From IMG/VR virus record IMGVR_UViG_3300026484_000402, positions 1 through 64,000 of that record: a DNA stretch of 64,000 nt. One strand, 5' to 3'. Of this stretch, positions 1,069-33,089 are shown in pieces. The notes beneath the pieces are model-generated. The model searched no databases, had not been told where the DNA came from, and saw nothing but the letters and a program-made list of their open reading frames with translations. The position numbers and the translations under genes were made by a program. The DNA comes from a virus. Numbering within the stretch: the stretch's first letter is position 1; each line of letters starts with the position of its first letter.

Positions 1069-1112
1069 GTATTATTATATCATTATTTTTTCTTTGTGAC
1101 AAGATATGTTAG
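1035..1112 (+). CDS. 25-aa hydrophobic peptide MGKISILCLLGSIIISLFFLCDKIC, type I toxin-like
   Basis: AAGGAG SD at 1022-1027, ATG at 1035, TAG at 1110-1112; one TM-like stretch; below the ORF-track size cutoff. Confidence 0.5.
   Translation: MGKISILCLLGSIIISLFFLCDKIC
1074..1082 (-). promoter_or_regulatory. Extended -10 promoter TGATATAAT for the antisense sRNA
   Basis: Perfect TGnTATAAT with no protein gene immediately downstream. Confidence 0.55.
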
Positions 1113-1313
1113 ATGATATAATACAGCAAACCAACTTAATAATGAAGATATTAATAATACAATTATTGCTTCTTCCTTTGTTATACTCTCTCCGCTTTCT
1201 TCTCTTATTTCGTTAAGTATTTTTTCATATTCTTGATTAAATATAAACATCCCCAACAATATTGCAACTATCACTCCAACAATATAAACATTAAACATCA
1301 CCATCACCTCCAT
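1083..1313 (-). CDS. Small two-TM membrane protein
   Basis: Two hydrophobic segments; start may be a few codons downstream (GGAGGTG-ATG). Confidence 0.7.
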   Translation of the reverse strand: MEVMVMFNVYIVGVIVAILLGMFIFNQEYEKILNEIREESGESITKEEAIIVLLISSLLSWFAVLYHLTYLVTKKK

Positions 1314-7741: not shown

Positions 7742-10234
7742 CTATATGCCTTCCAAATTAATTATAAAATCAGTCATTTTCTTAGATAACGCTTTTCCTT
7801 TATTTAAAAACGATGACAACATTCCATCACTAACACTATCAAGCATTTTATGGTAATTGCTATCTATAATCATAAGAACTCTAACCATGCCATTTACTCC
7901 ATCTTTAAGTTGCTCTATATAACTTTTTATAACTGCAACAGGCGTGTCAAGAGTTGCTAAATAACTTATAATAGCAGATTCTAAAACTTTTTTATCTGCT
8001 ATCTCTTTCAACTGTTCAAGCATCTCAGGGTCTATATTTTGTACCATAAAACCATTTTCATCCACTTCTGGAGTTTGCATATTATCATCAGCTTGATTAA
8101 CCTGCTGTTGAGCGCCTATGTCACCCTGTTGTTGCGCTTGAGGCATATCTTGCTGAGTTTGAGCATTAGGTTCTTGTTGCGCTTGAGGTATACCTTGCTG
8201 AATTTGAGCATTAGGTTCTTGTTGCGCTTGCTGCATTTGTTGTTCTTGTGGTTGGGCTCCCTGGGTTTGAGCAACATAATTATCAAGCTGAACTAGTAAA
8301 TCATCTAATGATAAACCTTGTTGTTGAGCAGCTTGAATTAACTGATTTGGGTCTTGCCCTATTTGTTGACACAATTCATTTATTTTATTTATTTTTTCTT
8401 GTTCATTAGGTTGAGCTTGTTGTTGGACCTGATTGTTGACATCAATATTTTGTTCTTCTTCAGATGGTTGTTGTCCAGCAATAGCTCCGGCGGTAGCAAA
8501 TTGTTGCAACGTTGAAGTTTGAATATCAATCGATTGTTTCATTTGAGCTATTAACATCATAAGTTGTTGCATTGTAAGTTGTTGCTGTTGAGCCATTTGA
8601 ATTAATTGCGCTATTTGTTCATTAAGTTGATATAACGGAGTAACAGTATCCGGTTGCTTTGCTGCTTCTTTAATTATTTTACATATTTCTTCTTCTTTAT
8701 AACCCTCGTTTGCAAGCTTAATAACAAAACCTTCTTTTGAATAAAATTCTCCATTGTATTCAATTTTCCCATCTCTTCTTTGAGTTACTTCTGCTGTTTT
8801 TGTAAGCATAAAATTGTTAATATCTTCACTTCTAAAAAAGTCGCATCTATTTCTTGAACAACTAAAAGCTTCTTCTTTCACAAAAAACGCATTATTTTTA
8901 GGTATATACAAAATATCATTATTTCTAATAATTCTTGTAATTTCATTATCAGGAACGACAACTATCTGTTTAATCGGACCAAAAGATTGTTCTATAACAA
9001 TTCTTCCATTTTTTAATTTAATTAATTCTCCAAACAAATATCTTATATAAGAAATTTCATTACCATTGTTGATTAATAAAAACCCACTTTTTTCAGAACT
9101 TGGATTTTCGTCAATCCATTTTTTTATATGGAGTTTTATAACAGAGCTTATACTCATACCGTATTCATCTTTTTTTATACCCATAATAGGATTATCACTT
9201 TTACCAGAGGTTACACAAACTTTTTCAGAAGACAACATCATCTTTTTATCTTCTCCAAACTTTGAAGCAACAATATACGTATATGGGTTTAATTCTTTGT
9301 CAAATAAAGTATATACACCAGAATCCGATACCTCAGTCAAATTTTTAAGAAACGACTCTTTAACTAAATCTTTAAGAGTAGGAGAATTAACTTCTGCAAC
9401 TTTGGTCAATACATCAGAATTTTTTATATAAAAACCTTGTGTTGCTATTTTTTTAAATGCTTTTTCTCTCTCATATTCAGGCAATGTTTTTATTTCGTCT
9501 TTTGTAAAATACACAACTGGTTTTTTATTTGCTGAAGCGACTTTTGAAATGTCAGACAATTTAGCATATCTTTCGATTTCTGAATAATCAGATACCATTT
9601 CAATCATTTTTTTTATATTTTCATTTTTAGAAGCTATTTTAACAATACTTTTTGCAAACTCTTTATCTTTAAAAGCCATATCACTCAACATTGATGATTC
9701 GTTATTTGAAGCAGTCTTATTAATTCCAGGAAGGCCGATTTGTTTGAACTTAAGAGTTTTGAAACCGCTTAAAACATCATCAAAATTTATTTCTTTAGAA
9801 AAATTATTGGATGCAACTTTAGGAGAGTATGTCATAGGTGTAGCAAATAAGCTCCCTATAATTCCTTTATCTATAGCTATCTCCCCTTCCTTATTTTTCA
9901 TATCTTCTTTTGTCAAAACCTGACCTATTGAATTTGAAATAGAATTGACAAGCTTGTTATATAAAAGTTTTGTAAGAGCATAATACCTACCAGTATTATC
10001 GTAACCTATATACGACACACAATCTACATTTCCATCTCTATAAATTATCGGAATAGTTAAATCTATTCCTGAAATAAGTAATTTAAAAGAACCTAAAGCT
10101 TCCGAACCATCTGGATTTATTTCATCCAGGCTATATTTAACAATAAATTGAGCAAAAGCTGGATAATTTGAAATAAGTTGTGAATAAGCTTCATCCAATA
10201 TGTTTTGTTTCATTACATTAATTTTAACGCCCAT
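7742..10234 (-). CDS. Large head-associated (core/scaffold-like) protein with K-x-A sites and Gln-rich region
   Basis: 830 aa; at least 9 K-x-A sites; long Q-rich low-complexity tract; near portal. Confidence 0.55.
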   Translation of the reverse strand: MGVKINVMKQNILDEAYSQLISNYPAFAQFIVKYSLDEINPDGSEALGSFKLLISGIDLTIPIIYRDGNVDCVSYIGYDNTGRYYALTKLLYNKLVNSISNSIGQVLTKEDMKNKEGEIAIDKGIIGSLFATPMTYSPKVASNNFSKEINFDDVLSGFKTLKFKQIGLPGINKTASNNESSMLSDMAFKDKEFAKSIVKIASKNENIKKMIEMVSDYSEIERYAKLSDISKVASANKKPVVYFTKDEIKTLPEYEREKAFKKIATQGFYIKNSDVLTKVAEVNSPTLKDLVKESFLKNLTEVSDSGVYTLFDKELNPYTYIVASKFGEDKKMMLSSEKVCVTSGKSDNPIMGIKKDEYGMSISSVIKLHIKKWIDENPSSEKSGFLLINNGNEISYIRYLFGELIKLKNGRIVIEQSFGPIKQIVVVPDNEITRIIRNNDILYIPKNNAFFVKEEAFSCSRNRCDFFRSEDINNFMLTKTAEVTQRRDGKIEYNGEFYSKEGFVIKLANEGYKEEEICKIIKEAAKQPDTVTPLYQLNEQIAQLIQMAQQQQLTMQQLMMLIAQMKQSIDIQTSTLQQFATAGAIAGQQPSEEEQNIDVNNQVQQQAQPNEQEKINKINELCQQIGQDPNQLIQAAQQQGLSLDDLLVQLDNYVAQTQGAQPQEQQMQQAQQEPNAQIQQGIPQAQQEPNAQTQQDMPQAQQQGDIGAQQQVNQADDNMQTPEVDENGFMVQNIDPEMLEQLKEIADKKVLESAIISYLATLDTPVAVIKSYIEQLKDGVNGMVRVLMIIDSNYHKMLDSVSDGMLSSFLNKGKALSKKMTDFIINLEGI
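8129..8230. repeat. 45-bp tandem repeat (~2.3 copies) encoding QAQQEPNAQxQQxxP
   Basis: GTTGCGCTTG at 8131, 8176 and 8221. Confidence 0.85.
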
Positions 10235-10256
10235 TACATTTCCTTGTTTTTAATGA

Positions 10257-10265
10257 ATTATAACA
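10257..10265 (-). promoter_or_regulatory. Extended -10 TGTTATAAT
   Basis: Upstream of the 10234 ATG with AAGGA SD. Confidence 0.6.
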
Positions 10266-10281
10266 AAGTATTGAGATTTTG

Positions 10282-10488
10282 TTAAATATTTATTTCTTTA
10301 ATATCTCTTCCAACAGATGAGATATTAACCGATAATGCTACTTTTCCATCATATGACAACACTTGATTATTAACAAAAGGACAAAGGTTAAATATGACCG
10401 CTTTTTTTTGCTCTTTGAAATAATTATCAATATCTTCGCTTTTAAGTGATACTTGACTAACAGGGATTCCTTTTATTTGTTCAGCCAT
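10282..10488 (-). CDS. Hypothetical protein
   Basis: AAAGGAG SD. Confidence 0.6.
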   Translation of the reverse strand: MAEQIKGIPVSQVSLKSEDIDNYFKEQKKAVIFNLCPFVNNQVLSYDGKVALSVNISSVGRDIKEINI

Positions 10489-10537
10489 AGTTTCTCCTTT
10501 TTTTCAAATAATATCATTATTATAAATAAAAGTGAAG

Positions 10538-10744
10538 CTAAGATAGAAGTTGTCTAAAATATTCATCGTTTTGTTTTATTATATAAAAATCTATTTTTAC
10601 ATTTTCTCCTATTTTGTTATACAGTTCTTTTATATATTGTTTTGCTTTTTTCTTAGTTTTAAAAATTGCGACAACTTCTTTTTCATTATAGACATTTTCA
10701 ACATAAACGACATATATTCTTTTAAAATCTGTTTCAATTAACAA
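10538..10744 (-). CDS. Small hypothetical phage protein coupled to rep
   Basis: Overlaps the rep stop; IYVVY...VAIFKTKKKAKQY pattern common in small phage proteins. Confidence 0.6.
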   Translation of the reverse strand: MLIETDFKRIYVVYVENVYNEKEVVAIFKTKKKAKQYIKELYNKIGENVKIDFYIIKQNDEYFRQLLS

Positions 10745-11799
10745 TTTTCATCCATTACTTTTATGATTTTAGAATTAAGTTCAGTAAATTTGTTAACATC
10801 AATTTTGTATAAATCAAAATAGCATCTACCCTCTTTAAGAAAGTTATAATAATCTTCTATCTTTTTTGCAAACATATATACGTTATTATAAATTTCCATA
10901 CTTTCATCTGAATCTATGTAAACTTCTTCACCGTTTGTTGTTTTAGCAAAAATTTTACCATTAACATCTATTCCATACCATACAACTTTGTTATTAAGTT
11001 TACCGACAATAAAATATTTACCAGTACCAGAATATGTTTCACGTAAAAATCTTACAAAATTTTTAATATTTTTAACTTCAGGCTTATCATACCTGTTTTT
11101 TTTATTATCGGTTACATAAAATACAACATTATACACTCTATTTCCATCTGTTTCAGTTTTATATGTAACGTATATATCAGTGTGTTGATTTATTTCTTTT
11201 ATAGCTGGTTCTAATAATCTTCTTTTAATATCATAAAAATCATACTTATCAGAACACATGAAAAAATCTCTAAGTTCATCTATAGAATACGATATTTCTC
11301 TTTTATATTTTTTTTGTATTTCATATTTGTTTTTTAATTCTTCAAAAAGCCTTAATGAATATGGTTTTCTTAAATTTTTCATATTTTTTATATGATATTT
11401 AAGATAATTATTTTTATACTCTATCAATATAGACAACATATCTTTGTCTATATAAAATACTATGTCTTGTCTTTTTTTATATATAACTTTATCTACAAAA
11501 TGTAAAAACATTTCTTCATTGCCATTTTTAATTATTATAACTTTTGACATTAATTCTTTTATTGCTTTTTTAATTTGTTTATATATTACACTTATATCTT
11601 TGTCAAAAAGACTAAACAATTCATCTTTTTTTATAGAATAAATATAGACATCTTCTTCAGTTTTTGTAACAACTATGTTTAATAGCTGAATTGCATAAAT
11701 AGACAAGTCATATTTACTCTTCATTATTATTGAACTTTTTTTTATGCTAAATTCTTCATCTAGCTCAATTACTACAATATCATCTTTATTTTTTCCCAT
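10738..11799 (-). CDS. rep: Plasmid replication initiator, Rep_3 (RepB/RepE-like winged helix)
   Basis: KSSIIMKSKYDLS, LRKPYSLRLFEEL, YSIDELRDFF and DIKRRLLEPAIKEINQHTDIYVTY Rep_3 motifs; adjacent iterons. Confidence 0.9.
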   Translation of the reverse strand: MGKNKDDIVVIELDEEFSIKKSSIIMKSKYDLSIYAIQLLNIVVTKTEEDVYIYSIKKDELFSLFDKDISVIYKQIKKAIKELMSKVIIIKNGNEEMFLHFVDKVIYKKRQDIVFYIDKDMLSILIEYKNNYLKYHIKNMKNLRKPYSLRLFEELKNKYEIQKKYKREISYSIDELRDFFMCSDKYDFYDIKRRLLEPAIKEINQHTDIYVTYKTETDGNRVYNVVFYVTDNKKNRYDKPEVKNIKNFVRFLRETYSGTGKYFIVGKLNNKVVWYGIDVNGKIFAKTTNGEEVYIDSDESMEIYNNVYMFAKKIEDYYNFLKEGRCYFDLYKIDVNKFTELNSKIIKVMDENC

Positions 11800-11890
11800 T
11801 TCTTTCTCCTTCTTTTATTGTATCTTATAATGTAACTATAATATGTAGAAATTTGAAACCTCGTAATCACGGTACTTCCAGCGATTTTTC

Positions 11891-12008
11891 ACCGACAACT
11901 TTGCCAATAAAACAGGGGGTTAAACCGACAACTTTGCCAATAAAAATCGATTTTCACCGACAACTTTGCCAAAATAAAACAGCAACACCGACAACTTTGC
12001 CAATAAAA
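11891..12008. repeat. Four iterons ACCGACAACTTTGCCAA (plasmid-type origin)
   Basis: Identical 17-bp core at 11891, 11924, 11956 and 11987 (33/32/31-bp phasing) upstream of rep, followed by an AT-rich tract. Confidence 0.9.
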
Positions 12009-12200
12009 TTTTACCACATTTTTAATGATTTAAGGGGATATTTTTTTGAGGAAAAAAAGCTTTAATTAAAGAAAGTACAAAAGCTCCAAGTTCTGGATAT
12101 TTTTAAGATTTTTATTTTTATTTTTTCAATTTTAAATTTCCTAATAAGGTAAGGAAATAAAACTGATTTTTAATTGTTGATTTACATATAAATTCATATC

Positions 12201-12216
12201 TGATATAATTATATCA
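12201..12216. promoter_or_regulatory. Perfect palindrome TGATATAATTATATCA giving an extended -10 on each strand
   Basis: 16-bp palindrome between ori and the 12247 gene. Confidence 0.55.
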
Positions 12217-12246
12217 AATTGATAATAAAAAAACAAAGGAGCTTAC

Positions 12247-12678
12247 ATGATAGCTTTAACATTACAATCAGCATTTAACTGGGATAAGGAAACAGCTAAT
12301 TTAATAGGTCACCTAGCGTCTACTTTATCTAAAGAATCTATAGGGTTAAGTGACATAGTTTCAGCTATAAAATCTAAAGATACAGACAATGATGTAACTA
12401 TAGCAGATAATTGGATTAAATATTTGCTAAATACTGTATTTAATGGAGTAAAAGAAAAAGCTTTATCTTTAACTTCGGACAGTAATGTAACAGATGTAAT
12501 CAATAAATTAGCCGACGATTTTAACCCAGTTATAAACGGAAAAGACTCGTCTTTTGGAAATATATTAGATATATTCATTGCTAAAGAATATTCATTCCAA
12601 GAATACGCAAATGCACTTATAGGTGAAGTAATGAAAGCTGACACATACTGGAAAGGTGTTATATGCGATAATAATTGA
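12247..12678 (+). CDS. Hypothetical protein adjacent to ori
   Basis: AAAGGAG SD; own promoter. Confidence 0.7.
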   Translation: MIALTLQSAFNWDKETANLIGHLASTLSKESIGLSDIVSAIKSKDTDNDVTIADNWIKYLLNTVFNGVKEKALSLTSDSNVTDVINKLADDFNPVINGKDSSFGNILDIFIAKEYSFQEYANALIGEVMKADTYWKGVICDNN

Positions 12679-12694
12679 GCGGATTAAACTCCGC
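12679..12694. terminator. Hairpin between convergent genes
   Basis: GCGGA-TTAAAC-TCCGC. Confidence 0.35.
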
Positions 12695-13595
12695 CCATTG
12701 TTATCATAATATTGCCTTCTTCATCTTTAATCATTTTAACAGAATCGCTAGGTATCTGGTCTTGAACAATATCTCTTCCTTCTTTATATTTGGCAAAGGC
12801 ATCAAAAACTTCTAAGTAACTTTTCGGGTTTGTATCGGTATGACTATATTTAGCCACTTTATCACTATAACCAGCTATTTCTACAAAAGTCTCTATTCCC
12901 ATTTTTACAAATTTAAAAGAGACTCTACCTATTCTTTCTTTTTTACCCTCACGATATTTAAATTTAACTCTATTATCTGAAATTTTTTCAATTATTTTTT
13001 CATCAGTTATATTATCTATTTGAGCGTTAAATGAGGGGTCAAAATAAATTTCAACAGATTCTATTTCTTTTATTTCTTCTTCATTATACGTTTCATCTTT
13101 TTGTTTCTCAGAAGCTGTTTTTTGCAGCTCATAATTGCTGTCAGAATTGTCATCCTGATTTTCTTCATTTTGTTCATCTTTTTGATTCTTGTCATTATCA
13201 ACAACTTTCATTGCTACTATTGACAAATTTTTCATAGCTTCAATTTGTTCATAAGATAAGTCTATTTTTATAGAATACGCAGATGGATTCAAAGAAAGTT
13301 CTTCATTGTTAGTTATAAATTTACCGTTTTTATAAGTTGCGATTATATATCTTTCATACGGAAATCTAAGTATTACCAAATTGCCATCATCTAATGCTTT
13401 ACCAAGTTTATCTGTAACGCTGTTAGGTTTAAGTGTAGACTTTGGAGAAGGTGTTCCGTTTATTATAATTCTTCCATCAACATCATATAATGCAATTTTA
13501 CCATCAAAATCAACCATTATAAAATTTTCATCCACAGAAAGCACTTTCCCAATACCTAAGAATTCACATTTTACTTCTTGTCCTTTTACAAACAT
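12684..13595 (-). CDS. Hypothetical protein with N-terminal Tudor/SH3-like domain
   Basis: FVKGQEVKCEFLGIGKVLSVDENFIMVDF resembles the UvrD/PcrA C-terminal Tudor pattern; acidic linker with a KTAS site. Confidence 0.55.
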   Translation of the reverse strand: MFVKGQEVKCEFLGIGKVLSVDENFIMVDFDGKIALYDVDGRIIINGTPSPKSTLKPNSVTDKLGKALDDGNLVILRFPYERYIIATYKNGKFITNNEELSLNPSAYSIKIDLSYEQIEAMKNLSIVAMKVVDNDKNQKDEQNEENQDDNSDSNYELQKTASEKQKDETYNEEEIKEIESVEIYFDPSFNAQIDNITDEKIIEKISDNRVKFKYREGKKERIGRVSFKFVKMGIETFVEIAGYSDKVAKYSHTDTNPKSYLEVFDAFAKYKEGRDIVQDQIPSDSVKMIKDEEGNIMITMGGV

Positions 13596-13605
13596 TAAAT
13601 CTCCT

Positions 13606-13800
13606 TTACCCTATTCTTTTAGTTCTTGTTGATATTCTAAATCCTGAATGTCCTCTAGTGCCTATTGACAATCTCATTTTTGCTTTTTCTGATGGGCTTC
13701 TTTTTCTTGATAAAAAACCATATCCTTCTTTTTCAAGAGGATTACATTCATTGTCAACTTCATATTTTAACATTTTTTGAGCAGAAATTTTATATAACAT
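13606..13800 (-). CDS. Small basic hypothetical protein
   Basis: AAAGGAG SD and TGTATAAT promoter upstream. Confidence 0.6.
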   Translation of the reverse strand: MLYKISAQKMLKYEVDNECNPLEKEGYGFLSRKRSPSEKAKMRLSIGTRGHSGFRISTRTKRIG

Positions 13801-13859
13801 TGTTTTTTCTCCTTTTTTTTGTTTTAATTATACAACAACTTTTTAAAAAGGTCTAAAGT

Positions 13860-14594
13860 GTGATTAACATAGTAGTTTCCAGTAACCTTAAAACAAGTTT
13901 AGATTATTTATTATTAAAATATACTATTCGAAGTATAGAAAAAAACTTTAGAGAACCAGATTATATAATTCATGTTTTTTCCAATTTTAATCCAACTTTC
14001 CTAAAAAATATAATTTATCATAAGGTTCATTTTGAAAAATCACACGATGAGCTTTTTTCAATTCATAATTCTTCAATTGTAAATGCAGCATCAAAATTTA
14101 AAGATTTTATATTTATTCAAAGTGGAAACATAATAAATGACAAAATAACTTCGATGTATACTAAAAATGCAAAAGGATTTAAAAAAGAAAGGAACCTTAT
14201 AGATGAAATAAGTGATGTTTATTCAAAATACGCATACATGACGTATATTGAGATGTCTACAAATTTTGGTCACAATAAAACTATTATCACAGATTTGTTT
14301 TCTCCGCAATTTATAAAATCAAAAGATTTTAACAAGATGATGAACGACTTTAGAACTATACAAACAAACAACTATAACGCTTTAATGCTTTATAGAAATT
14401 ATTTTAATACAATAAAAATTACAAAAATAAACAGAATGAATAGTTTTATAATAGATGAAGAGACATATTATTGTTTTATGAAAAGGTTTAAGAAAGATAA
14501 AGTTTTTTTTATAGAAAAATATGGGCTTAAAAACCCAATTGTAAAAACTTATATAGAAAAGAAATTTGGAAACAAATGTTCTTTTGAATGCTAA
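13860..14594 (+). CDS. Divergent Stealth CR2-like (sugar-phosphotransferase-related) protein
   Basis: LKYTIRSIEKNF...IHVFSNFNPTFL resembles ELRYSLRSIEK; the NDD motif is replaced by QSG. Confidence 0.4.
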   Translation: MINIVVSSNLKTSLDYLLLKYTIRSIEKNFREPDYIIHVFSNFNPTFLKNIIYHKVHFEKSHDELFSIHNSSIVNAASKFKDFIFIQSGNIINDKITSMYTKNAKGFKKERNLIDEISDVYSKYAYMTYIEMSTNFGHNKTIITDLFSPQFIKSKDFNKMMNDFRTIQTNNYNALMLYRNYFNTIKITKINRMNSFIIDEETYYCFMKRFKKDKVFFIEKYGLKNPIVKTYIEKKFGNKCSFEC

Positions 14595-14848
14595 TGTTTA
14601 TTTGTTACGCCTAGATATTTTTCTGCGGTTCTAAGTCCGGCAAGCACTCCTCCAGTGATAAGAATATCATTTAATCTAGATATTACTTCAGACGGTAATT
14701 CTATATGTATTCCAAATCCAGACAATATAGCATACGCAGTGGGATATACAATATAAATTAACACTACTGACATAACTATTGCAGCGGCTAAAACCGGTCT
14801 CCATGCTGGATTTATAAAATCTATTATTTTTTTTACCGTAGGATTCAT
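14591..14848 (-). CDS. Holin (GTA_holin_3TM-like)
   Basis: 85 aa; WRP...hydrophobic helices...LAGLRTAEK signature. Confidence 0.75.
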   Translation of the reverse strand: MNPTVKKIIDFINPAWRPVLAAAIVMSVVLIYIVYPTAYAILSGFGIHIELPSEVISRLNDILITGGVLAGLRTAEKYLGVTNKH

Positions 14849-15891
14849 TTTGTCTCCCTTCTTGCTGGAACTGTTATTTTAATTATTGTTCCGTTCTCAT
14901 CTGAATTAACCACTTCTTCATTACCATTTGCCGAATTTATTATTTCTTTACATAGATACATTCCAAATCCTCTTCCATTGCCTTTTGTGCTTTTTCCTAA
15001 ATCCCATATATTTGCAACCATATCCGGTGGTATTCCTTCTCCATTATCTATTATATAGAATGTGAGAATTTTATTTTCACAATCATATGATATATATTTA
15101 ATTTTTACTATCGAAGCATTTGCGTCTAAGCTGTTTTGTATATGATTATTTAAAACATTTAGCATTTCAACGGGTTTCATTGTTGTTAAATAAAAACATT
15201 TAAGTTCTTCCGAAACATAATAATCAAAATTATATTTATTAAACATACTAAACATTGAAAAAACATTATTTGCTATATTGTATAACGAGTCCTGATTTTT
15301 TAGTTTGTTATCTTTTATGCTTTTTATCATACCTAACGTTTCAAACATGCTATTTATTGAATTTTCTATTAAAGAACTATTTATTTGTATATCTTTTATA
15401 AGTTTAATATTTCCGTCACAATATCCTGTTAAAGAACAATTTTTACAATCTCTCGTTTTTTCATTACAACCATATACTATTCTATCTATGTTTCTTTTTC
15501 CATCTCTCTTTGCAGATGATACGAGTGTTTTTATTATCCTGTTGTTTTCCTCAAAAGCATTTCTTATAGCAATTAAAGGACTCATTAGTTGATGGTCTAT
15601 ATTTTGCATTAACGAATATGTTATTTTGTATGACAGAATATTTTTTTCTTTATTCAAGTATGTTTCAAATGTAATCTTAAAAAGGTTTGATATTTTATAT
15701 AAAAAAACAAAAAAACTTAAAACAATGAATAATGATTTTATTATCCACATCATATGCCCATTATCACAACAAGGGCATTTATTTAAATATTCAAATAAAA
15801 GCTCTATTAAGAATATTGATATTATAAAAATTAGTGTTATTTTTATAGCTTCGTGTATATGTTTTTTTGATTTATTATAATTCTTAAACAT
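14845..15891 (-). CDS. Membrane-bound sensor histidine kinase with Cys-rich insertion
   Basis: Two TMs; H-box NIDHQLMSPL; N-box NNHIQNSLDA; G1 DNGEGI; G2 GRGFGMYL; C-x6-C-x2-C-x5-C insertion. Confidence 0.9.
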   Translation of the reverse strand: MFKNYNKSKKHIHEAIKITLIFIISIFLIELLFEYLNKCPCCDNGHMMWIIKSLFIVLSFFVFLYKISNLFKITFETYLNKEKNILSYKITYSLMQNIDHQLMSPLIAIRNAFEENNRIIKTLVSSAKRDGKRNIDRIVYGCNEKTRDCKNCSLTGYCDGNIKLIKDIQINSSLIENSINSMFETLGMIKSIKDNKLKNQDSLYNIANNVFSMFSMFNKYNFDYYVSEELKCFYLTTMKPVEMLNVLNNHIQNSLDANASIVKIKYISYDCENKILTFYIIDNGEGIPPDMVANIWDLGKSTKGNGRGFGMYLCKEIINSANGNEEVVNSDENGTIIKITVPARRETK

Positions 15892-15892
15892 A

Positions 15893-16594
15893 TTAATCCT
15901 TAAACAAGCATTCTATAAAAAATTTTGCCCTATCATCAAAATAAGGTGTTTTTGTTAACACATTGTTTTTTAAATAATTTTCGCCTAATAATTTTATTAT
16001 TTTTTCTTTTTCTTTTGAGAAATGGTTATCAAGATAACAGCCAGTAAAAATACAAGTTTTTATATTAGGGTTAATTTTATGCAAATAGTACACAAGGTCT
16101 ATTCCGTCCATAGTATATTTTTTGCCATTTTTTATAATCGATTCTCCAAAAACAATATCTACTATTGCATAATCAAGAGAGCACAATGTTTTGTCGTAAC
16201 TATCACAAGTTTTTTGTATTCTGTAAGGTGCATAACTATCTACTATAGGTCTTATTTCAACATCTTCATAATTAAGTTTTACCGAGTCTATAAGTTTAAG
16301 GGTTTCAATGTCAGTGTAAATATCGACGTTTTTAGTAAGTATTCTTTTTAAATCTTTTAAAACAAGCTCAGTAACCCCTTTATTGTCATCAGTTACTAAT
16401 AGATGTTTTTTATTATCGTCTTTAAAACCGCAAAAATAATTTAAATCTTCCCATTTTTTTAATTTTTCAAACGTCTCTTTTTGTAATTCTTCTTTAATTT
16501 TTGATACCTCAAATATATCTTCTTCAGAGATTTTAAATTTTTGTCTATTTTGAAGAAAATTAAATAATTTATTTTTTATATTGATAAGACTCAT
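15893..16594 (-). CDS. Receiver-only response regulator with internal insertion
   Basis: LLVTDD acidic pocket, YAIVDI phospho-Asp, MDGIDL, IFTG, LTKTP; no DNA-binding output domain. Confidence 0.75.
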   Translation of the reverse strand: MSLINIKNKLFNFLQNRQKFKISEEDIFEVSKIKEELQKETFEKLKKWEDLNYFCGFKDDNKKHLLVTDDNKGVTELVLKDLKRILTKNVDIYTDIETLKLIDSVKLNYEDVEIRPIVDSYAPYRIQKTCDSYDKTLCSLDYAIVDIVFGESIIKNGKKYTMDGIDLVYYLHKINPNIKTCIFTGCYLDNHFSKEKEKIIKLLGENYLKNNVLTKTPYFDDRAKFFIECLFKD

Positions 16595-17058
16595 TTTATT
16601 CCTTTCACACTTGAAGTAATATCTTTTACTACTTCTGTTGATTTAACCATTGCTTTTTCGTCTAAATGATAAAAAACCATTAAACCGCCTATAAAAAGCA
16701 AGATTCCTAACACTATTGAAAAAATTATTTTAAATGGAGATTCAATAAAGAAACGATACCACTTCTTTTTAGTGCTAGGTTTAGTTTTGTCATACAATAT
16801 ATAAATATACTCTTGTTGTATATCTATAATACACCATGTCATTTCAGAAATTGTCAGTTTTAATTTTTTCTGCTCAGTTTCTATTTTAGAAGCCAATGTA
16901 ATGATAAAATCGCTTATTTCTTCTACGTTTTGAGCTTTAGTTAAATTGTAATAAATTTGTAAGTCGTTATTAGATAATGTGTCGTTATGCAATTCTTTTA
17001 GAACGTTTTTCAATTTTTCAATATATTCTTTTAGTTTTTCATCTTTTACTGAAGACAT
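16591..17058 (-). CDS. Helical protein with C-terminal TM anchor; first gene of the kinase/holin operon
   Basis: IIFSIVLGILLFIGGLMVFY TM; ATGA overlap with the regulator gene. Confidence 0.7.
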   Translation of the reverse strand: MSSVKDEKLKEYIEKLKNVLKELHNDTLSNNDLQIYYNLTKAQNVEEISDFIITLASKIETEQKKLKLTISEMTWCIIDIQQEYIYILYDKTKPSTKKKWYRFFIESPFKIIFSIVLGILLFIGGLMVFYHLDEKAMVKSTEVVKDITSSVKGIK

Positions 17059-17110
17059 TGCTGACCTTTGTATTTTTAAATAATTATAATAAATATTTTG
17101 AAGTCAGCAA
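17058..17110 (-). promoter_or_regulatory. Promoter (-10 at 17083-17088) enclosed by an inverted repeat that covers the RBS and start
   Basis: TTGCTGAC (17058-17065) / GTCAGCAA (17103-17110). Confidence 0.55.
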
Positions 17111-17142
17111 AAAAAAATAAAAAAAAGACGGAAAAAAGGAGA

Positions 17143-17565
17143 TTAAAAAGGTATCTCACTCTCGTCTATATTGTCTCCGTATTCATTATCGTAGTATTGA
17201 TAATTTTTATTTTTTTCTTGATTGTTCTTGTTGTTTGCATTATTGTTCTTTTTTGACAATATTCTAATATCGGAAGCAAGGACATATGTTTTACTTTTAT
17301 TGTTTCCATCTTTGTCTTTCCAAGTGTCTATTTTTATTTTTCCTGATAATTCAATTAAATCACCTTTATTTGTATAATTGTTTATAAATTCAGCATTGTT
17401 ACCCAATAATTTAATTGGGATAAATTCAGTAACTTCTTGATATGCCCCTTTTACTTTTTCATTGTCAGATACAGCTATATTTATTTCTAAAATACTAAAC
17501 CCATTTGGTGTTTTTGTTAGCTCTCTTTTAGAAGATATTCTTCCAGATAAACATACTTTGTTCAT
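17143..17565 (-). CDS. ssb: Single-stranded DNA-binding protein
   Basis: MNKVCLSGRI, KGDLIELSGKI, acidic C-terminus ending EIPF. Confidence 0.95.
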   Translation of the reverse strand: MNKVCLSGRISSKRELTKTPNGFSILEINIAVSDNEKVKGAYQEVTEFIPIKLLGNNAEFINNYTNKGDLIELSGKIKIDTWKDKDGNNKSKTYVLASDIRILSKKNNNANNKNNQEKNKNYQYYDNEYGDNIDESEIPF

Positions 17566-17966
17566 TTTTGTTCCTTTATTATTTGTTTTAAGACGTCTTC
17601 TTTATCATCTACTATTGAAGACAAGCAAGACCATATGTCGCTTATTTTTATTAAAGTTTCAGCTATACTTAATTCATCCGTAATTAAAGATACCAGGTTT
17701 TTTATAATTTCTGCTTCAGGATTTAAAAATGATGAATGTTCATTATAAAAAACATCACTTAATAATGCTGGTGAGTGCGCTCCTTTTACAAGAGTTAATT
17801 TTATTACGTTTGAAACTAACTCAGCTTCGTCATAGTTTTCTCCTGCCATTTTTAATGCAGATTCTTTTATAGCTAAAGATACATATAAGTCAAAAGAATT
17901 TTGGTCTACATTTGGCTTAATTATTTCAAAAGCATTAATTAAATTATTCATGCCCAACCTCCACAT
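17562..17966 (-). CDS. Hypothetical protein
   Basis: Overlaps both neighbours in the operon. Confidence 0.65.
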   Translation of the reverse strand: MWRLGMNNLINAFEIIKPNVDQNSFDLYVSLAIKESALKMAGENYDEAELVSNVIKLTLVKGAHSPALLSDVFYNEHSSFLNPEAEIIKNLVSLITDELSIAETLIKISDIWSCLSSIVDDKEDVLKQIIKEQK

Positions 17967-26176: not shown

Positions 26177-26569
26177 TTAGTATTCCGGCAAGTATTTAGG
26201 TCTTTTTCCTTTATTAGCCCATCTGTCTTTAATGTTTAATGATTGATTAACCCATTCCAAATTATTCACTTGATAATCACTTCTGTTTCCATTTTTGTGA
26301 TTTACAATATTGTAATCCGGTCTTGGTTTAGGTAAAAATGTCTCCGCAACCGCCCTATGTATTTTTACTTCATGTTTTTTCCCGTCTGACATAAGGGTTA
26401 CTCTGGGATATCCCATCCATGTCCGTCCCCTTAAAATTTTTTTTGTTTTAGCATTCCTTATACCTAGAAAGGGATGAACTTCATAATTGTTAAATTTTTC
26501 AAGTCTTTTCCATTGAGCTGAAGATAGTGAATGCAGAGATAGGTGAGATGTTTCTACCTGTTGTCCCAT
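26177..26569 (-). CDS. HNH homing endonuclease (NUMOD4/HNH type)
   Basis: IHRAVAETFLPKP...VNHKNGNRSDYQVNNLEWV. Confidence 0.85.
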   Translation of the reverse strand: MGQQVETSHLSLHSLSSAQWKRLEKFNNYEVHPFLGIRNAKTKKILRGRTWMGYPRVTLMSDGKKHEVKIHRAVAETFLPKPRPDYNIVNHKNGNRSDYQVNNLEWVNQSLNIKDRWANKGKRPKYLPEY

Positions 26570-26916
26570 CTTGCCTTACCTTCTCTAACGTCTACGTGAG
26601 TTCTACCAATATATCTTCCTATTCCATATTTGTTTGGATATTTACTTTCAAGATAATCAGCAACTGCATCTTGATTTTCCCCTAAATTTAAAACTACAAA
26701 ATCACATGCCATACCTTTTGTATGCATAGAATTTGGACTACCGCCTACAGCTTTGTTGTGCTCTATACATCTACACCCAGAGTTTATTTTAATAGGGGAA
26801 TTAAAATGTGCTCTAACATCTTCTAAAACCTCTAAAAGTTCACTATCCATAGCAGCAAAACCACAACCACATTTACATGCAAATTCACTTCTTTTAAAAT
26901 GCCCTTTACTATACAT
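26554..26916 (-). CDS. Endolysin, peptidase M15A (Peptidase_M15_3); start revised to MYSKG
   Basis: HFKRSEFACKCGC, SGCRC..HN..VGG, SMHTKGMACD, HVDVR; AAAGG SD before 26916. Confidence 0.9.
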   Translation of the reverse strand: MYSKGHFKRSEFACKCGCGFAAMDSELLEVLEDVRAHFNSPIKINSGCRCIEHNKAVGGSPNSMHTKGMACDFVVLNLGENQDAVADYLESKYPNKYGIGRYIGRTHVDVREGKARWDNR

Positions 26917-26924
26917 ATGTATCC

Positions 26925-26949
26925 TTTTTGTGTAATTATAACACAAAAA
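26925..26949 (-). promoter_or_regulatory. Endolysin promoter TGTTATAAT within a perfect 9-bp inverted repeat
   Basis: TTTTTGTGT-AATTATA-ACACAAAAA. Confidence 0.6.
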
Positions 26950-27071: not shown

Positions 27072-27266
27072 CTACTTTCCCTTACGTTTCTTTTGCAACA
27101 AGAGTTTGTATTTTTTAATTCTTTCATTTATAAACTCTTTATCATCGTTAGCCATTCCAAAAATAGCTAGAACTTTTTTTAAATATGCAGTTTTAAGAAG
27201 AGACTTAAGCTCGTCTTCTGTATATCCGTTTTGTCTCGCTATAGCATCTTTTTCTTTAAGAGTCAT
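27072..27266 (-). CDS. Small basic hypothetical protein
   Basis: ATGA overlap with upstream gene. Confidence 0.6.
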   Translation of the reverse strand: MTLKEKDAIARQNGYTEDELKSLLKTAYLKKVLAIFGMANDDKEFINERIKKYKLLLQKKRKGK

Positions 27267-27856
27267 TTTTCAATCCTTTTTTTTATTTTTACAAATTCTA
27301 CACTATTTTTCCATTTGTCTGCAACAACACATTTTATTGCTTTTATCATATTGTTTATATTTGCAGCATACGCTTTTGCTTGAGCGCTTTTATAATGTGT
27401 GCCAGCATTATATGATGCCCATATTTGCATCCAATTGTTTTCACCTCTTATTTTCTGCCAACATCTTATTTCAGCAACAGCCTCAGCGAATGCAAAATCT
27501 AAATTTTCAATTAATCTAGTACATATCATATTTGCATTCACTCTTGTCCACCTCCATTCTTTATGTCTTCCGAATACGCTTTTAAGCCTATAGTGGAAAA
27601 TACCGCAACTTCCGCCATCTCCATCCCACATATCAATTTTGGCGAGCCCAGCTATTGATTCTTTCCAAGCTATTGCCGTGAGAGTATATTGCAAGTTGAC
27701 AGTTTCACCTTTTTTGAAAACTTCATATAAAAGTTTTTGTTGTGACAAAGAAAGCAAGTTAAATGCTCTTATATATTCCTTAACAGAATATACTTTATAA
27801 TTTGATGCAAATAAAAAACTAATAAATGTTAACGCAATTAGTACTTTTTTTATCAT
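27263..27856 (-). CDS. Lysozyme-like / lytic transglycosylase with N-terminal signal peptide
   Basis: MIKKVLIALTFISFLFAS leader; AIAWKES catalytic Glu; CGIFH; ASYNAG. Confidence 0.75.
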   Translation of the reverse strand: MIKKVLIALTFISFLFASNYKVYSVKEYIRAFNLLSLSQQKLLYEVFKKGETVNLQYTLTAIAWKESIAGLAKIDMWDGDGGSCGIFHYRLKSVFGRHKEWRWTRVNANMICTRLIENLDFAFAEAVAEIRCWQKIRGENNWMQIWASYNAGTHYKSAQAKAYAANINNMIKAIKCVVADKWKNSVEFVKIKKRIEK

Positions 27857-28064: not shown

Positions 28065-28670
28065 CTAATTTGCTGAACTATTAATTGTAGTTTCATTTAA
28101 AGAAGTAGCAATTTCAGATGTGGTTATTTTTGAGTTAATAGACGAAGGTGATAAAAAGGACGAAGAGCTAGGCGAGGTAGTGTTAAAATTAAAAGCCTTA
28201 CTAGTGAATGTATATTTATTGAATCTTTTTGAATTATTCATATTAAACGGAGAAACTGTTTTTGATTTATCTATTTCTATAAAACCTATAGAGTCTATTT
28301 CGTCGGCTTTAAAACAATATAATTTATCATATATTTTTTCGGCATTAAAAAACATATTCCTTCCGTCAACAGTAAACACAGATATTGGTATTGCATCAGG
28401 GTTTTTATTTTTTATATCATAAACAAATATATAATATGAAATAGCCCCTTTTATCATTACTTGAAATGACTTTTCTCCCATTACTATATAGTATCCGTCA
28501 TTTGCGGCCAAAAATTTAAGAATATACTTTCCGTTATATTCAGATTGCTCTAAATTTAATTCTGTAGATTTTTCTCCGTTAAAATATACAACTGTAATAG
28601 TCTTAGGGTTAGTGGTTTTAATAAACCCGTATAACCCTGTGATAGGAATAAAAGTTTTTATATGTTTCAA
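28065..28670 (-). CDS. Putative virion structural protein (beta-rich, Ser/Thr tail)
   Basis: Follows the 562-aa beta-rich gene; composition. Confidence 0.45.
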   Translation of the reverse strand: MKHIKTFIPITGLYGFIKTTNPKTITVVYFNGEKSTELNLEQSEYNGKYILKFLAANDGYYIVMGEKSFQVMIKGAISYYIFVYDIKNKNPDAIPISVFTVDGRNMFFNAEKIYDKLYCFKADEIDSIGFIEIDKSKTVSPFNMNNSKRFNKYTFTSKAFNFNTTSPSSSSFLSPSSINSKITTSEIATSLNETTINSSAN

Positions 28671-28671
28671 T

Positions 28672-30360
28672 TTACACCTGCTTGTAAGAATTTCCTATTT
28701 TAAGTATTCCATGATTATTAGGATTAAGAACTGCATACATTAATCCTTCTTCTCCATAAGTAGCTGTTCCGCTTTCAAGCTCATCCCCATCTATGCTTTT
28801 TAATACATAATTTAATGTAGTGTTTTCGGTATAATTAGGACTGTAAGCTATAACAATGTTTTTTGAGTCTCCTACCTTAAAAATTTTTATTGCTTTATCT
28901 ATTTTTGCTATATACACGCAATCATTTAATTCAGCCGTAAATTCAGTACCATATATATTGTCAAACAATTGGTTCATTCCGGCAACTTGTATTTTTTCAA
29001 ATGTTCCATCCTGTTTCACAGCATACAATTTATATACCGGAACTGCTCCGCTTTTAGATATAACACTAAACGTTATTTTATCTCCTATACTATATTCTTC
29101 AGCGTTATCGCTTGCATTTACAGATGTTATTTCAGTAGATAATTTTTTAGTATTTCCTCCCGCATCTATAAGATATGCTTCAATAATATATTTACCAATT
29201 TGTTTCATTTCAAGGTCTATAGATATAGCATCGTTTCCGGCTAACTCTTCATATACTATATCTGTTTTTATATGTTCGTCTTTGCCTGCAATATTTACAA
29301 CATTTTGAATTACATACGAATCAAACACTACTCTCCATAAGATATTTGTAATGTTTTGTAAAGAATCGTTTTTTGATGATAAAATTATTGTATATATACC
29401 TATATCAGAATTATATTCTACGCCTAATGAAGCATCTATGTTTTCGGAGACAAATATTGTTTTTTTATCTTCAAAAGATACTTGTTTTCCATCTTCATCC
29501 AAACAATTGAATATTAGTTTTATTTCGTTGTTTTGATAACTATTACAAGTGGATATATTTATATTTTTCAAAGGAGTCGCAAAGTCTTTAATGGTTTCTG
29601 TTTTCTGTGTGTTTATAAACACATCTACGCTTTGTGGAATTAGGTTTTTGGATATGTATAAAGCAATAGGCATCATAGGTTTTACGGCATTACTATAAAT
29701 AGGGCTAAAATATGCAAATTGATATTTTATTTGATTAAGTGTTACAAATTCTTGTTCCTCATTTTCTCCGATTACTTTTATTTTAATGTTTGTTTCATCT
29801 GTAAACGTATCATCGGAAAAAACCAATCTTATATTTAAATCGTATTCCCCTTTTTGTAATCCCGTAAATCCATCAAAAGGAACTGCTCCATTTTCCGTTA
29901 GTTCTTCAATTAAGTATTTTCTTTGTGGAAAAATTATTTTATCTTTAAAACTATACATTACTTGGGGTGTTACTTGTATTTCATTTAAAGTTTCGTTTAT
30001 CTTTATAGTATATTCTTTTGTTATGTCAACTTTTATATCCGATTTTTTGATAAGCGATGTGGTTATATATTCAGAAACTTTATTATTGTTATTCTCAATC
30101 AATAAATTGTTAAGATAATTATGCATATGCAATCTGTTACTATCACCAGACCATAAACATATCAATATATCACTTCCATCGCTCCAAGGTGTTTCAAAAG
30201 ATGATTTATTAGGTATTTTAACTTCAGTTATATTTGATGTTATTTTAAAAACATCTCCTTCATAATTGTCTTTGCCGTTTGCATCAAAAATAAATAATTG
30301 ACCATATATTGTTTCACCTATTTCGTTAAAATTTAAAATGTCGACAATTATACTTTTCAT
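28672..30360 (-). CDS. Beta-rich (Ig/PKD-like) putative virion protein
   Basis: GEYDLNIRL and GKYIIEAYLIDAGGN Ig-like strand motifs. Confidence 0.5.
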   Translation of the reverse strand: MKSIIVDILNFNEIGETIYGQLFIFDANGKDNYEGDVFKITSNITEVKIPNKSSFETPWSDGSDILICLWSGDSNRLHMHNYLNNLLIENNNNKVSEYITTSLIKKSDIKVDITKEYTIKINETLNEIQVTPQVMYSFKDKIIFPQRKYLIEELTENGAVPFDGFTGLQKGEYDLNIRLVFSDDTFTDETNIKIKVIGENEEQEFVTLNQIKYQFAYFSPIYSNAVKPMMPIALYISKNLIPQSVDVFINTQKTETIKDFATPLKNINISTCNSYQNNEIKLIFNCLDEDGKQVSFEDKKTIFVSENIDASLGVEYNSDIGIYTIILSSKNDSLQNITNILWRVVFDSYVIQNVVNIAGKDEHIKTDIVYEELAGNDAISIDLEMKQIGKYIIEAYLIDAGGNTKKLSTEITSVNASDNAEEYSIGDKITFSVISKSGAVPVYKLYAVKQDGTFEKIQVAGMNQLFDNIYGTEFTAELNDCVYIAKIDKAIKIFKVGDSKNIVIAYSPNYTENTTLNYVLKSIDGDELESGTATYGEEGLMYAVLNPNNHGILKIGNSYKQV

Positions 30361-30410
30361 TTTTTTTCCTTTTTCTTATACGAGTGTTTTGATATTTTGT
30401 AATATTTTAT

Positions 30411-30416
30411 TATAAT
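30411..30416 (+). promoter_or_regulatory. -10 TATAAT for the RNAP subunit gene, inside a TTTGATA...TATCAAA inverted repeat
   Basis: Arms at 30388-30394 and 30431-30437, the latter running into the AAAGGA SD. Confidence 0.5.
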
Positions 30417-30447
30417 TGTAGCAAAAAGATTATCAAAGGAAAACTTT

Positions 30448-32534: not shown

Positions 32535-32821
32535 TATTGGTAGGAATAGGAACTATTTTAATTACCTTTTTGGGCTTGTTTGCTAAATTAAAATCAACAG
32601 AACATCGTGTGGAAGATTTAGAGAATGAAAACGAGAATATTAAACAGCAAAATGAAGCTTTAAAACAAAATGTAGAAGTTAAAAAAGAAGAGCTTAACTT
32701 ATCAAACGTGCAGCATAAAATAGAAAAAGAATTTGATACTGCCCAAAAGAAAAAAGAAATTGAAATTGAAGAAAAAATTACAAAGGCTGAAGATGGTGAA
32801 AAAATTACTATTACTATTTAG
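32513..32821 (+). CDS. Inner-membrane spanin (Rz-like)
   Basis: N-terminal TM plus coiled coil; overlaps a lipoprotein gene. Confidence 0.7.
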   Translation: MLFRIKLILVGIGTILITFLGLFAKLKSTEHRVEDLENENENIKQQNEALKQNVEVKKEELNLSNVQHKIEKEFDTAQKKKEIEIEEKITKAEDGEKITITI

Positions 32822-33089
32822 TTCATTGTTTATTATCGGTTGTGCACAAAAAAAAGTTGTATATATAAAAAACAAATGCCCGTCTTTTAGGTATGAACCA
32901 AGCATCCCTAAAAGTAAGACTTTTACTTTTTCAAGTAAAAATGATAAAATTGTTTTATCAAAGCAGGATTTTAAAGAAATTTTAAAAAATTATTCTTTTA
33001 TGAAAAATGAACTAAATCAAACAAAAAAATATATAAAAGAATACAACAAAATGATACAAAGGATTAACAATGTCAGATATAGTAACTAA
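32793..33089 (+). CDS. Outer-membrane spanin lipoprotein (Rz1-like); start revised to MVKKLL
   Basis: Signal peptide with lipobox FIIGC; overlaps the 3' end of the i-spanin. Confidence 0.7.
   Translation: MVKKLLLLFSSLFIIGCAQKKVVYIKNKCPSFRYEPSIPKSKTFTFSSKNDKIVLSKQDFKEILKNYSFMKNELNQTKKYIKEYNKMIQRINNVRYSN

Follow-up and report, generated by a model that had tools for sequence, protein, structure and literature searches.

The question raised by this locus is whether a two-component system encoded by a phage governs the lysis of its host. We analyzed a stretch of 64,000 nucleotides (nt) (hereafter referred to as the window), which forms the first 64 kb of the 80,340-bp IMG/VR virus record IMGVR_UViG_3300026484_000402 (CheckV completeness estimate, 43%; GC content, ~28%) and comes from a large phage. 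Four open reading frames (ORFs) follow one another on its minus strand: a 155-amino acid (aa), all-helical protein with one C-terminal transmembrane anchor (16591-17058), a 233-aa stand-alone receiver (15893-16594), a 348-aa histidine kinase (14845-15891), and an 85-aa membrane protein (14591-14848) that we read as a short form of the GTA_holin_3TM family. A first-pass annotation of this DNA had proposed that the four genes make up a lysis switch in which phosphorylation tunes the triggering of the holin. The evidence described below leads us to favor, with moderate confidence, another explanation, namely that the locus consists of two units of separate origin: a three-gene signaling cassette and a holin-family gene that belongs to the backbone of the phage genome.

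The four genes and their junctions, read directly from the sequence, are as the first-pass annotation had described them. The 155-aa and 233-aa genes share an ATGA overlap (AAAATGAGT), the 233-aa and 348-aa genes are separated by a gap of 1 nt (TAA-T-ATG; GATTAATATG), and the 348-aa and 85-aa genes again share an ATGA overlap (AAAATGAAT). An AGG-containing, Shine-Dalgarno-like stretch lies just 5' of all four starts, and the 85-aa gene has a strong AAGGGAG ribosome-binding site within the 3' end of the kinase gene.

We wanted to establish which of these junctions is conserved, and thus compared 13 distinct loci encoding relatives of the receiver, which were obtained from IMG/VR scans with subfamily alignments and one genome scan. 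All 13 loci are low in GC (0.23-0.36), and several lie on contigs of 67-272 kb. A scan with hidden Markov models placed a member of the anchor family directly upstream of the receiver in 12 of the 13 loci, and a kinase follows the receiver in 12 of 13 as well, the exception (L011) stopping at the contig edge. Further, 4-nt overlaps or 1-nt gaps recur at both junctions of the trio across loci. We note that only in L007 (a 194-kb contig) are receiver and kinase not adjacent, as an antisense 101-aa ORF and a 198-aa protein with two transmembrane helices lie between them (L007:6609-7566). The gene that follows the kinase behaves differently: the 85-aa gene stands there in only one of the 13 loci, the 89%-identical sister contig L001, and a metagenome scan returned nothing beyond the L001 contig. 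In six loci (L002, L006, L008, L009, L010, and L012), the kinase gene is followed by a gene for a secreted protein of ~82-98 aa with the motif TKSYxGWxRV and, in five of the six (L009 being the exception), then by a gene for a second secreted (signal-peptide) protein of 365-420 aa (L002:9807-11275, L006:8058-9604, L008:7858-9386, L010:7788-9140, L012:7765-8417, and, for L009, 7886-8170). Neither protein has a Pfam or PHROG match, and they may serve the system as periplasmic accessories or as its outputs. Other flanks hold virion genes (L013 and L014) or tail-fiber-like genes (L009). We also considered lysis genes beside the trio in L005 and L010, and rejected them, as the small membrane proteins there match only DUF2644, DUF5675, and PHROGs of unknown function. 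Overall, we conclude that the trio is a conserved functional unit, which carries the marks of a mobile accessory cassette, i.e. variable flanks, tight coupling, and a distribution confined to phages. The representative genomes of 185,579 species contained no true bacterial relative; the sole family-like match in the genome scans, L016, is a 5.8-kb phage-like scaffold binned in a metagenome-assembled genome from Guaymas. A further candidate member, L017, proved to be an ordinary long NtrC-like regulator.

The same picture emerged when the linkage was viewed from the side of the 85-aa gene. A scan with the alignment of the 85-aa family recovered 43 viral loci, in which the anchor, receiver, and kinase were found in the flanks only on the L001 contig; around the genes for the 41 other relatives of this protein, no kinase, receiver, or anchor gene occurs within ~4 kb. 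The sister phage L021 is the most instructive of these comparisons. There, orthologues of the window genes at 28672-30360 and 30448-32187 (RNA_pol_Rpb1_5) precede the 85-aa gene, which is followed by orthologues of 13606-13800, 12684-13595, 12247-12678, Rep, and 7742-10234. Thus, an RNA-polymerase subunit gene and not a kinase gene stands upstream of the 85-aa orthologue, whereas the downstream neighbors are those seen in the window. Compared with L021 (L021:1-8255; window, 28065-32187), the block 7742-14848 of the window is inverted and lies ~13 kb from the RNA-polymerase subunit gene at 30448-32187, and the intervening ~13 kb hold the signaling cassette, replication genes, and the endolysin gene. 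The boundary between the 85-aa gene and the kinase gene coincides exactly with one breakpoint. Because L021 keeps the downstream neighbors and not the kinase, we read the kinase/85-aa junction as a breakpoint of rearrangement or insertion that is confined to the lineage of the window and L001, and conclude that the 85-aa gene has a role independent of the kinase, as in L021. The first-pass annotation had suggested a search for synteny of kinase, receiver, and holin genes in related phages; that order is confined to the window and L001, and is found neither in L021 nor at the 41 other loci that encode relatives of the 85-aa protein. In ~12 other trio loci, no holin-like gene follows the kinase. 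The linkage is thus not conserved and, by the criterion that the first-pass annotation itself had set, the hypothesis of a general lysis switch tuned by phosphorylation is refuted. The general function of the cassette is not lysis control.

Is the cassette itself a two-component system? Judged by its sequence, the 348-aa protein is a sensor histidine kinase with two transmembrane helices and intact boxes, for which autophosphorylation is predicted. HATPase_c (PF02518) is matched at residues 242-344 (3.4e-14; 53.7 bits against a cut-off of 26.4), the best PDB match to the single sequence is the Thermotoga sensor kinase ThkA, and the PDB matches are histidine kinases. Pfam HisKA is matched by no member of the kinase family; the family profile spans the DHp and CA domains of HK853, and its H-box (ihHElntPl) aligns with the H-box of FixL. 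Across 11 aligned members of the family, H100 and P105 of the H-box (DHQLMSPL; consensus, HHELNTPL) are invariant, as are N249 and N253, and the DNGxGI and RGxGxY motifs are nearly so. The H, N, G1, and G2 boxes are thus present and conserved across 11 relatives, in line with the earlier claim of intact phosphotransfer motifs. We note that the alignment of one family member (L012:6545-7753) lacks the segment that holds the G1 box (DNGxGI); this kinase may be a degenerate copy or an artifact of assembly or ORF calling.

The sensory part of the kinase is unusual. The transmembrane helices (residues ~11-29 and ~47-65) are linked by a loop of ~16 residues containing CPCC, whereas most relatives carry a domain of ~100 residues with a C-x5-C pair between the two helices. 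Further, the DHp hairpin bears a cytoplasmic Cys4 insertion (C-x6-C-x2-C-x5-C) with all four cysteines present. The fourth Cys is replaced by Ser in L001, three Cys are found in L013, L014, and L002, and the insertion is missing from six others; it is therefore, as far as the alignment tells, a variable feature of the kinase family. Together, the CPCC loop, the Cys4 insertion, and the minimal extracytoplasmic part suggest that the kinase responds to a membrane, thiol/redox, or metal cue.

Pfam gave no match for the 233-aa protein, and a six-frame search of the record with PF00072 was empty. An exhaustive search of 1.84 billion representative proteins returned only 30 relatives of the receiver. 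In an alignment of 34 sequences, D69, D70, D146, and G164 are invariant, and T184 (mostly Thr or Ser) and K215 are largely conserved; four of the 34 relatives match Response_reg weakly (best, 3.2e-5), and the family profile, when compared with PDB sequences, finds mostly receiver domains with weak E-values. The structural evidence is stronger. The AlphaFold model (pLDDT, 90.9; pTM, 0.83) gave 205 Foldseek matches in the PDB at E<=0.001, and among the matches listed all are receiver domains, including Spo0F, CheY, TrrA, RR468, and PhoB-type N-terminal domains, with target-normalised TM-scores of up to 0.73. In the model, which has strands at residues 63-69, 142-145, 179-184, and 212-214, the ends of beta1, beta3, beta4, and beta5 carry the conserved acidic residues, Thr, and Lys. 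Based on this predicted fold and the active-site residues, we assign the 233-aa protein to a divergent CheY-like receiver subfamily, with D146 as the predicted phospho-acceptor. Here too the motifs required for phosphotransfer look intact, as had been claimed. Neither Pfam nor the AlphaFold model revealed a DNA-binding or other output domain, and no domain beyond the receiver fold was seen, which agrees with the description of the protein as a receiver-only regulator. The receiver nonetheless has several unusual features: its N-terminal 60 residues form a helical extension, alpha1 and beta2 are separated by an additional helix, and D146 is immediately followed by a beta-hairpin. We note that, in the largest subgroup of cassette loci, the receivers at L006:5932-6609, L008:5812-6495, L011:5824-6468, and L016:4253-4942 have Cys-rich N-terminal regions of ~60 residues with several CxxC-like pairs, where the receiver of the window has plain helices. 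The Cys-rich receiver extensions and the Cys motifs of the kinases suggest that metal or thiol/redox chemistry may be at play across the family.

The first gene of the trio encodes, as had been claimed, a transmembrane protein, which belongs to no known family, with hydropathy placing its C-terminal anchor at about residues 108-130 and the rest of the protein being helical. The 155-aa protein has in common with the proteins encoded at the same position elsewhere its architecture and a motif around FIxFxNDKxET, and comparison by hhalign of the window pair with the same-position proteins of the others gave a probability of 62% (E 7.7e-5). A profile search returned 39 clusters, all of ~150 aa and none with a Pfam domain. 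The AlphaFold model, made from a 38-sequence alignment, is all-helical and, with a pLDDT of 63 and a pTM of 0.31, too weak for a fold search. Matches of the 155-aa and 233-aa proteins to KaiC, Imm3, and troponin C were discarded as sub-threshold and as compositional or due to coiled coils.

Taken as a unit, the cassette resembles the classical systems with stand-alone receivers, i.e. CheA/CheY, KinA/Spo0F, and ThkA/TrrA of Thermotoga maritima, in that an H-box of the HisKA type (HxxxxP) is found in the kinase together with N, G1, and G2 boxes, and in that the receiver is a (beta-alpha)5 protein with the DD/D/T/K residues and no output domain. It differs from them in several respects: it is encoded by phages only, its receiver misses PF00072, and it has an obligatory tail-anchored third gene. 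The receiver further departs from the classical ones by its N-terminal extension, the extra alpha1-beta2 helix, the hairpin after the phospho-Asp, and a Val at the aromatic switch position, three residues before K215, and the kinase by the Cys4 insertion in its DHp hairpin. In the 50,697 phage genomes of GenBank, tblastn found no match to the receiver and matched the kinase through its ATPase domain alone, in a few unannotated records, and blastn found no match to the locus; in PHROGs, a few kinase-like families without assigned function match the ATPase domain of the kinase.

We next consider what the 85-aa protein is. It matches the C-terminal half of the holin profile phrog_3427 (6.8e-5), as do two close homologues (1.2e-5 and 4.1e-5). 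The match to PF11351 (GTA_holin_3TM) is below threshold (E 0.12; 13.3 bits against a cut-off of 24.8), and a six-frame search of the record with PF11351 found nothing; the L021 orthologue (48% identity) reaches 5.2e-4. In the ESM Atlas, the closest cluster by structure is that of PF11351, which is a lead only, since all ESM Atlas feature matches were below 0.9 and were counted as leads. In the GenBank phages, tblastn gave a single match, to gp44 of Roseobacter phage CRP-125. This protein is a genuine member of PF11351 (1.9e-15), and the 85-aa protein is 29% identical to it over 69 aa by BLASTP, colinear to both C termini, with the common motif WRP...FGI...GLRTxEKxxG(V/I)T. The gp44 gene lies just before that of maturase A, which we take to be the place of the holin in a T7-like gene order. 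Relatives of the 85-aa protein (40-odd) are typically ~130-135 aa long (median, 132 aa), with the homologous part at the extreme C terminus; the short form is found only in the lineage of the window and in L021. In the protein of the window, the N-terminal ~60 residues are missing and only the C-terminal ~70 match. PF11351 includes TeaA of phage ICP1, an experimentally supported holin (PMC7182436), and is named for the holin of RcGTA from the endolysin-holin locus rcc00555-rcc00556 (PMC5026251). We consider it likely, from these sequence comparisons, that the 85-aa protein is homologous to the PF11351/TeaA-type holin family, and it is probably a short form that keeps the C-terminal membrane core, and a predicted holin. 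As for the name given to it by the first-pass annotation, several weak matches converge on one holin family, with a score below threshold and a truncation to 85 aa.

The remaining lysis genes of the phage are unlinked to this locus. The endolysin gene (26554-26946, minus strand) encodes a Peptidase_M15_3 protein (PF08291, 4.9e-26; phrog_894, 5.6e-41) and lies 11.7 kb from the 85-aa gene, and an Rz-like lipoprotein of 118 aa, with a lipobox-like LFIIGC and a weak spanin match (phrog_812, 1.4e-4), is encoded on the plus strand at 32733-33089. Unlinked lysis genes occur in large phages such as T4, so this arrangement is compatible with a holin function. Because no small membrane or holin-like gene adjoins the endolysin gene, the 85-aa protein could still be the holin of this phage. 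An alternative candidate in the window is a 76-aa protein (1083-1313, minus strand) without a PHROG match, which has two strong hydrophobic helices, a KKK C terminus, and the shape of a class II holin. We also note that the endolysin gene overlaps the start of an HNH endonuclease gene just downstream (26177-26569), and that a 197-aa signal-peptide protein (27263-27856; phrog_600, a family without assigned function) is encoded ~300 nt upstream of it, with a WKES...GIFH stretch that looks like a lytic transglycosylase.

How the four genes are transcribed bears on whether they form one unit in this phage. The gap 5' of the 155-aa gene is 84 nt long and contains, on the minus strand at 17083-17088, a -10-like hexamer (TATAAT) that lies 25 nt upstream of the first ATG, is conserved in L001, and has a poor -35 region; it is a possible promoter element. 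The number of sigma-70-like sites in this AT-rich region (31) did not differ from that expected from shuffled sequences (31.2), and a terminator scan of 13500-17700 found no terminator between the SSB gene and the cassette, so that the single promoter proposed for the four genes is unproven. At the other end, a hairpin followed by a T-run (14522-14537, minus strand) is the sole terminator-like site in 13500-17700 (shuffle mean, 0.6). It lies 54 nt past the stop of the 85-aa gene, in the 3' end of a convergent gene for a 244-aa protein with no assigned family (13860-14594, plus strand; 4-nt overlap with the 85-aa gene), and is the likely end of the transcription unit. The 85-aa gene is probably co-expressed or co-translated with the cassette in the phage of the window. 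The 244-aa gene is kept in L001 and missing at the equivalent place in L021.

These observations suggest the following explanation. Large, low-GC phages carry a cassette of their own in which anchor, receiver, and kinase are translationally coupled. The kinase would sense a membrane, thiol/redox, or metal cue and autophosphorylate on H100, and the phosphate would pass to D146 of the receiver. Lacking a DNA-binding domain, the receiver should work through contact with another protein, for which the co-inherited tail-anchored protein is the best candidate and host proteins are the alternative. In the lineage of the window only, the backbone 85-aa gene would have been placed behind the kinase by genome rearrangement or by insertion of the cassette. 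Four points weigh against this explanation. First, the receiver and the DHp domain miss the Pfam models, and divergence toward another activity is possible. Second, although a 24.6-kb record represents L021 and contains no HATPase_c, the record is a 14%-complete fragment and the cassette is possibly present elsewhere in the L021 genome. Third, the 13-locus set leaves out the contexts of the closest relatives of the receiver (P0002-P0009; 42-53% identity), which might show a holin linkage. Fourth, the precise ATGA junction between kinase and 85-aa genes and the AAGGGAG site could reflect selected coupling and not accident. A functional tie between cassette and 85-aa gene that is specific to this lineage, either gating of lysis or an accessory role for the kinase, is possible.

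The first such tie is a signal-controlled lysis switch, in which the phosphorylated receiver gates the 85-aa holin, either directly or by way of the anchor as an antiholin or adaptor, and the timing of lysis follows the signal of the kinase; this would be a cytoplasmic analogue of the lysis inhibition of T4 or ICP1. In its favor, the 85-aa protein is a member of the TeaA/GTA holin family, translational coupling ties its gene to that of the kinase in the window as well as in L001, the endolysin has no neighboring holin candidate, and a receiver without a DNA-binding domain must act by protein contact. It is nevertheless unlikely in our view, as the linkage is missing in all ~12 other trio lineages and in all other relatives of the 85-aa protein, including that of L021. 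Further, the cassette lies directly behind the genes for SSB, DnaG, and DnaB, on the same strand and with no terminator between, which is unusual for a late lysis gene, and the N-terminal ~60 residues typical of the family are missing from the 85-aa protein, whose holin activity is predicted only. A specific form of this idea, namely that a cassette captured upstream of a truncated TeaA-type holin became a phosphorylation-gated, post-translational lysis clock, with the anchor as a cytoplasmic-face antiholin or adaptor and the Cys-rich kinase sensing a redox, metal, or membrane cue, seems to us quite unlikely.

Known systems offer partial parallels to such control. TeaA, which acts with ArrA in ICP1, and rcc00556 of RcGTA belong to PF11351, the family whose C-terminal membrane core can be aligned with the 85-aa protein. 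TeaA-type holins are subject to lysis inhibition, TeaA itself being under signal-dependent inhibition (PMC7182436), and the lysis and release of RcGTA are, according to Westbye 2013 as cited in PMC5026251, modulated by the sensor kinase CckA. The regulator in ICP1 is, however, a membrane antiholin (ArrA) and not a kinase, the kinase acting on RcGTA is a host protein, and, unlike in the window, neither system has a kinase gene fused to a holin gene. Control of RcGTA by CckA is transcriptional and acts via CtrA. A precedent for a kinase governing holin-like genes is LytSR-LrgAB/CidAB of Staphylococcus and Bacillus, in which a two-component system is linked to holin/antiholin-like genes. LytR is a transcriptional regulator with a LytTR DNA-binding domain, LytS combines 5-6 transmembrane helices with a GAF domain, LrgA and CidA are not of the PF11351 family, and LytSR-LrgAB is chromosomal. 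None of these defining features is present in the window, where there is no LytTR output and the linkage is not conserved.

A second alternative places the target in the host: the cassette would serve host takeover by cross-talk, either as a phosphate sink or by transfer from the kinase to a host regulator, with the anchor merely localizing the complex. The receiver's want of an output domain of its own and the behavior of the cassette as a mobile accessory module with variable flanks would fit, and PIT4 of Pseudomonas phage LSL4 is reported to target host two-component systems (PMC10714779). We regard this as improbable, because kinase and receiver are always inherited together, are strongly divergent from cellular families, and have no true relative in the 185,579 species representatives, which argues for a closed cognate pair.

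Finally, the 85-aa protein might be an accessory membrane partner of the kinase that supplies or modulates its signal or, in a variant with LytS-like logic, a holin-like protein whose perturbation of the membrane the kinase senses. Small membrane proteins such as MgrB and SafA (acting on PhoQ) and LiaF (acting on LiaS) regulate sensor kinases, and the likeness is that of a short membrane protein encoded beside a kinase with little or no extracytoplasmic domain. The 85-aa protein is unrelated in sequence to MgrB, SafA, and LiaF. A small membrane gene lies behind the kinase in just the lineage that has the minimal ~16-residue sensor loop and has lost the ~100-residue domain. In the largest subgroup (L002, L006, L008, L009, L010, and L012), where the kinases have ~100-residue sensors, a gene for a small secreted protein takes that place, which suggests that it may be one for sensor accessories. 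The accessory role is nevertheless very unlikely, as the 85-aa gene is conserved without a kinase in L021.

The wider setting of the two units is as follows. The SSB gene (PF00436, 2.3e-21) lies upstream of the first gene of the cassette on the same (minus) strand, where genes for a Cpn60-like chaperonin, DnaG, DnaB, RecT, and an exonuclease VIII-like protein complete a replication neighborhood. The downstream side holds a Rep_3 initiator gene and genes without assigned function. The Rz-like lipoprotein encoded at 32733-33089 suggests a Gram-negative host. One of the other cassette-bearing viral contigs, L002, encodes SmpB, the partner protein of tmRNA (12163-12606, minus strand; PF01668, 2.1e-38).

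Complete phage-encoded pairs of kinase and receiver are hardly documented. We found no description in the literature of a phage-encoded module of kinase, receiver, and anchor, and a comparative survey of jumbo phages reported only a divergent receiver variant that was never linked to kinases (PMC7824862). The trio described here is an undescribed, phage-specific variant of the two-component system, with a new receiver subfamily and an obligatory tail-anchored third component. The link to a holin is a lineage-specific junction and not the conserved logic of the system, which corrects the first reading of this locus, and the lineage of the window thereby represents a natural experiment in which the cassette became fused to a holin-family gene. 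Were the lysis clock real, it would provide the first case of a holin under the control of a two-component system encoded by a virus. An active cassette would mean that large phages themselves sense an environmental or intracellular cue and act on it at the membrane by protein contact, which would bear on how phages time their decisions.

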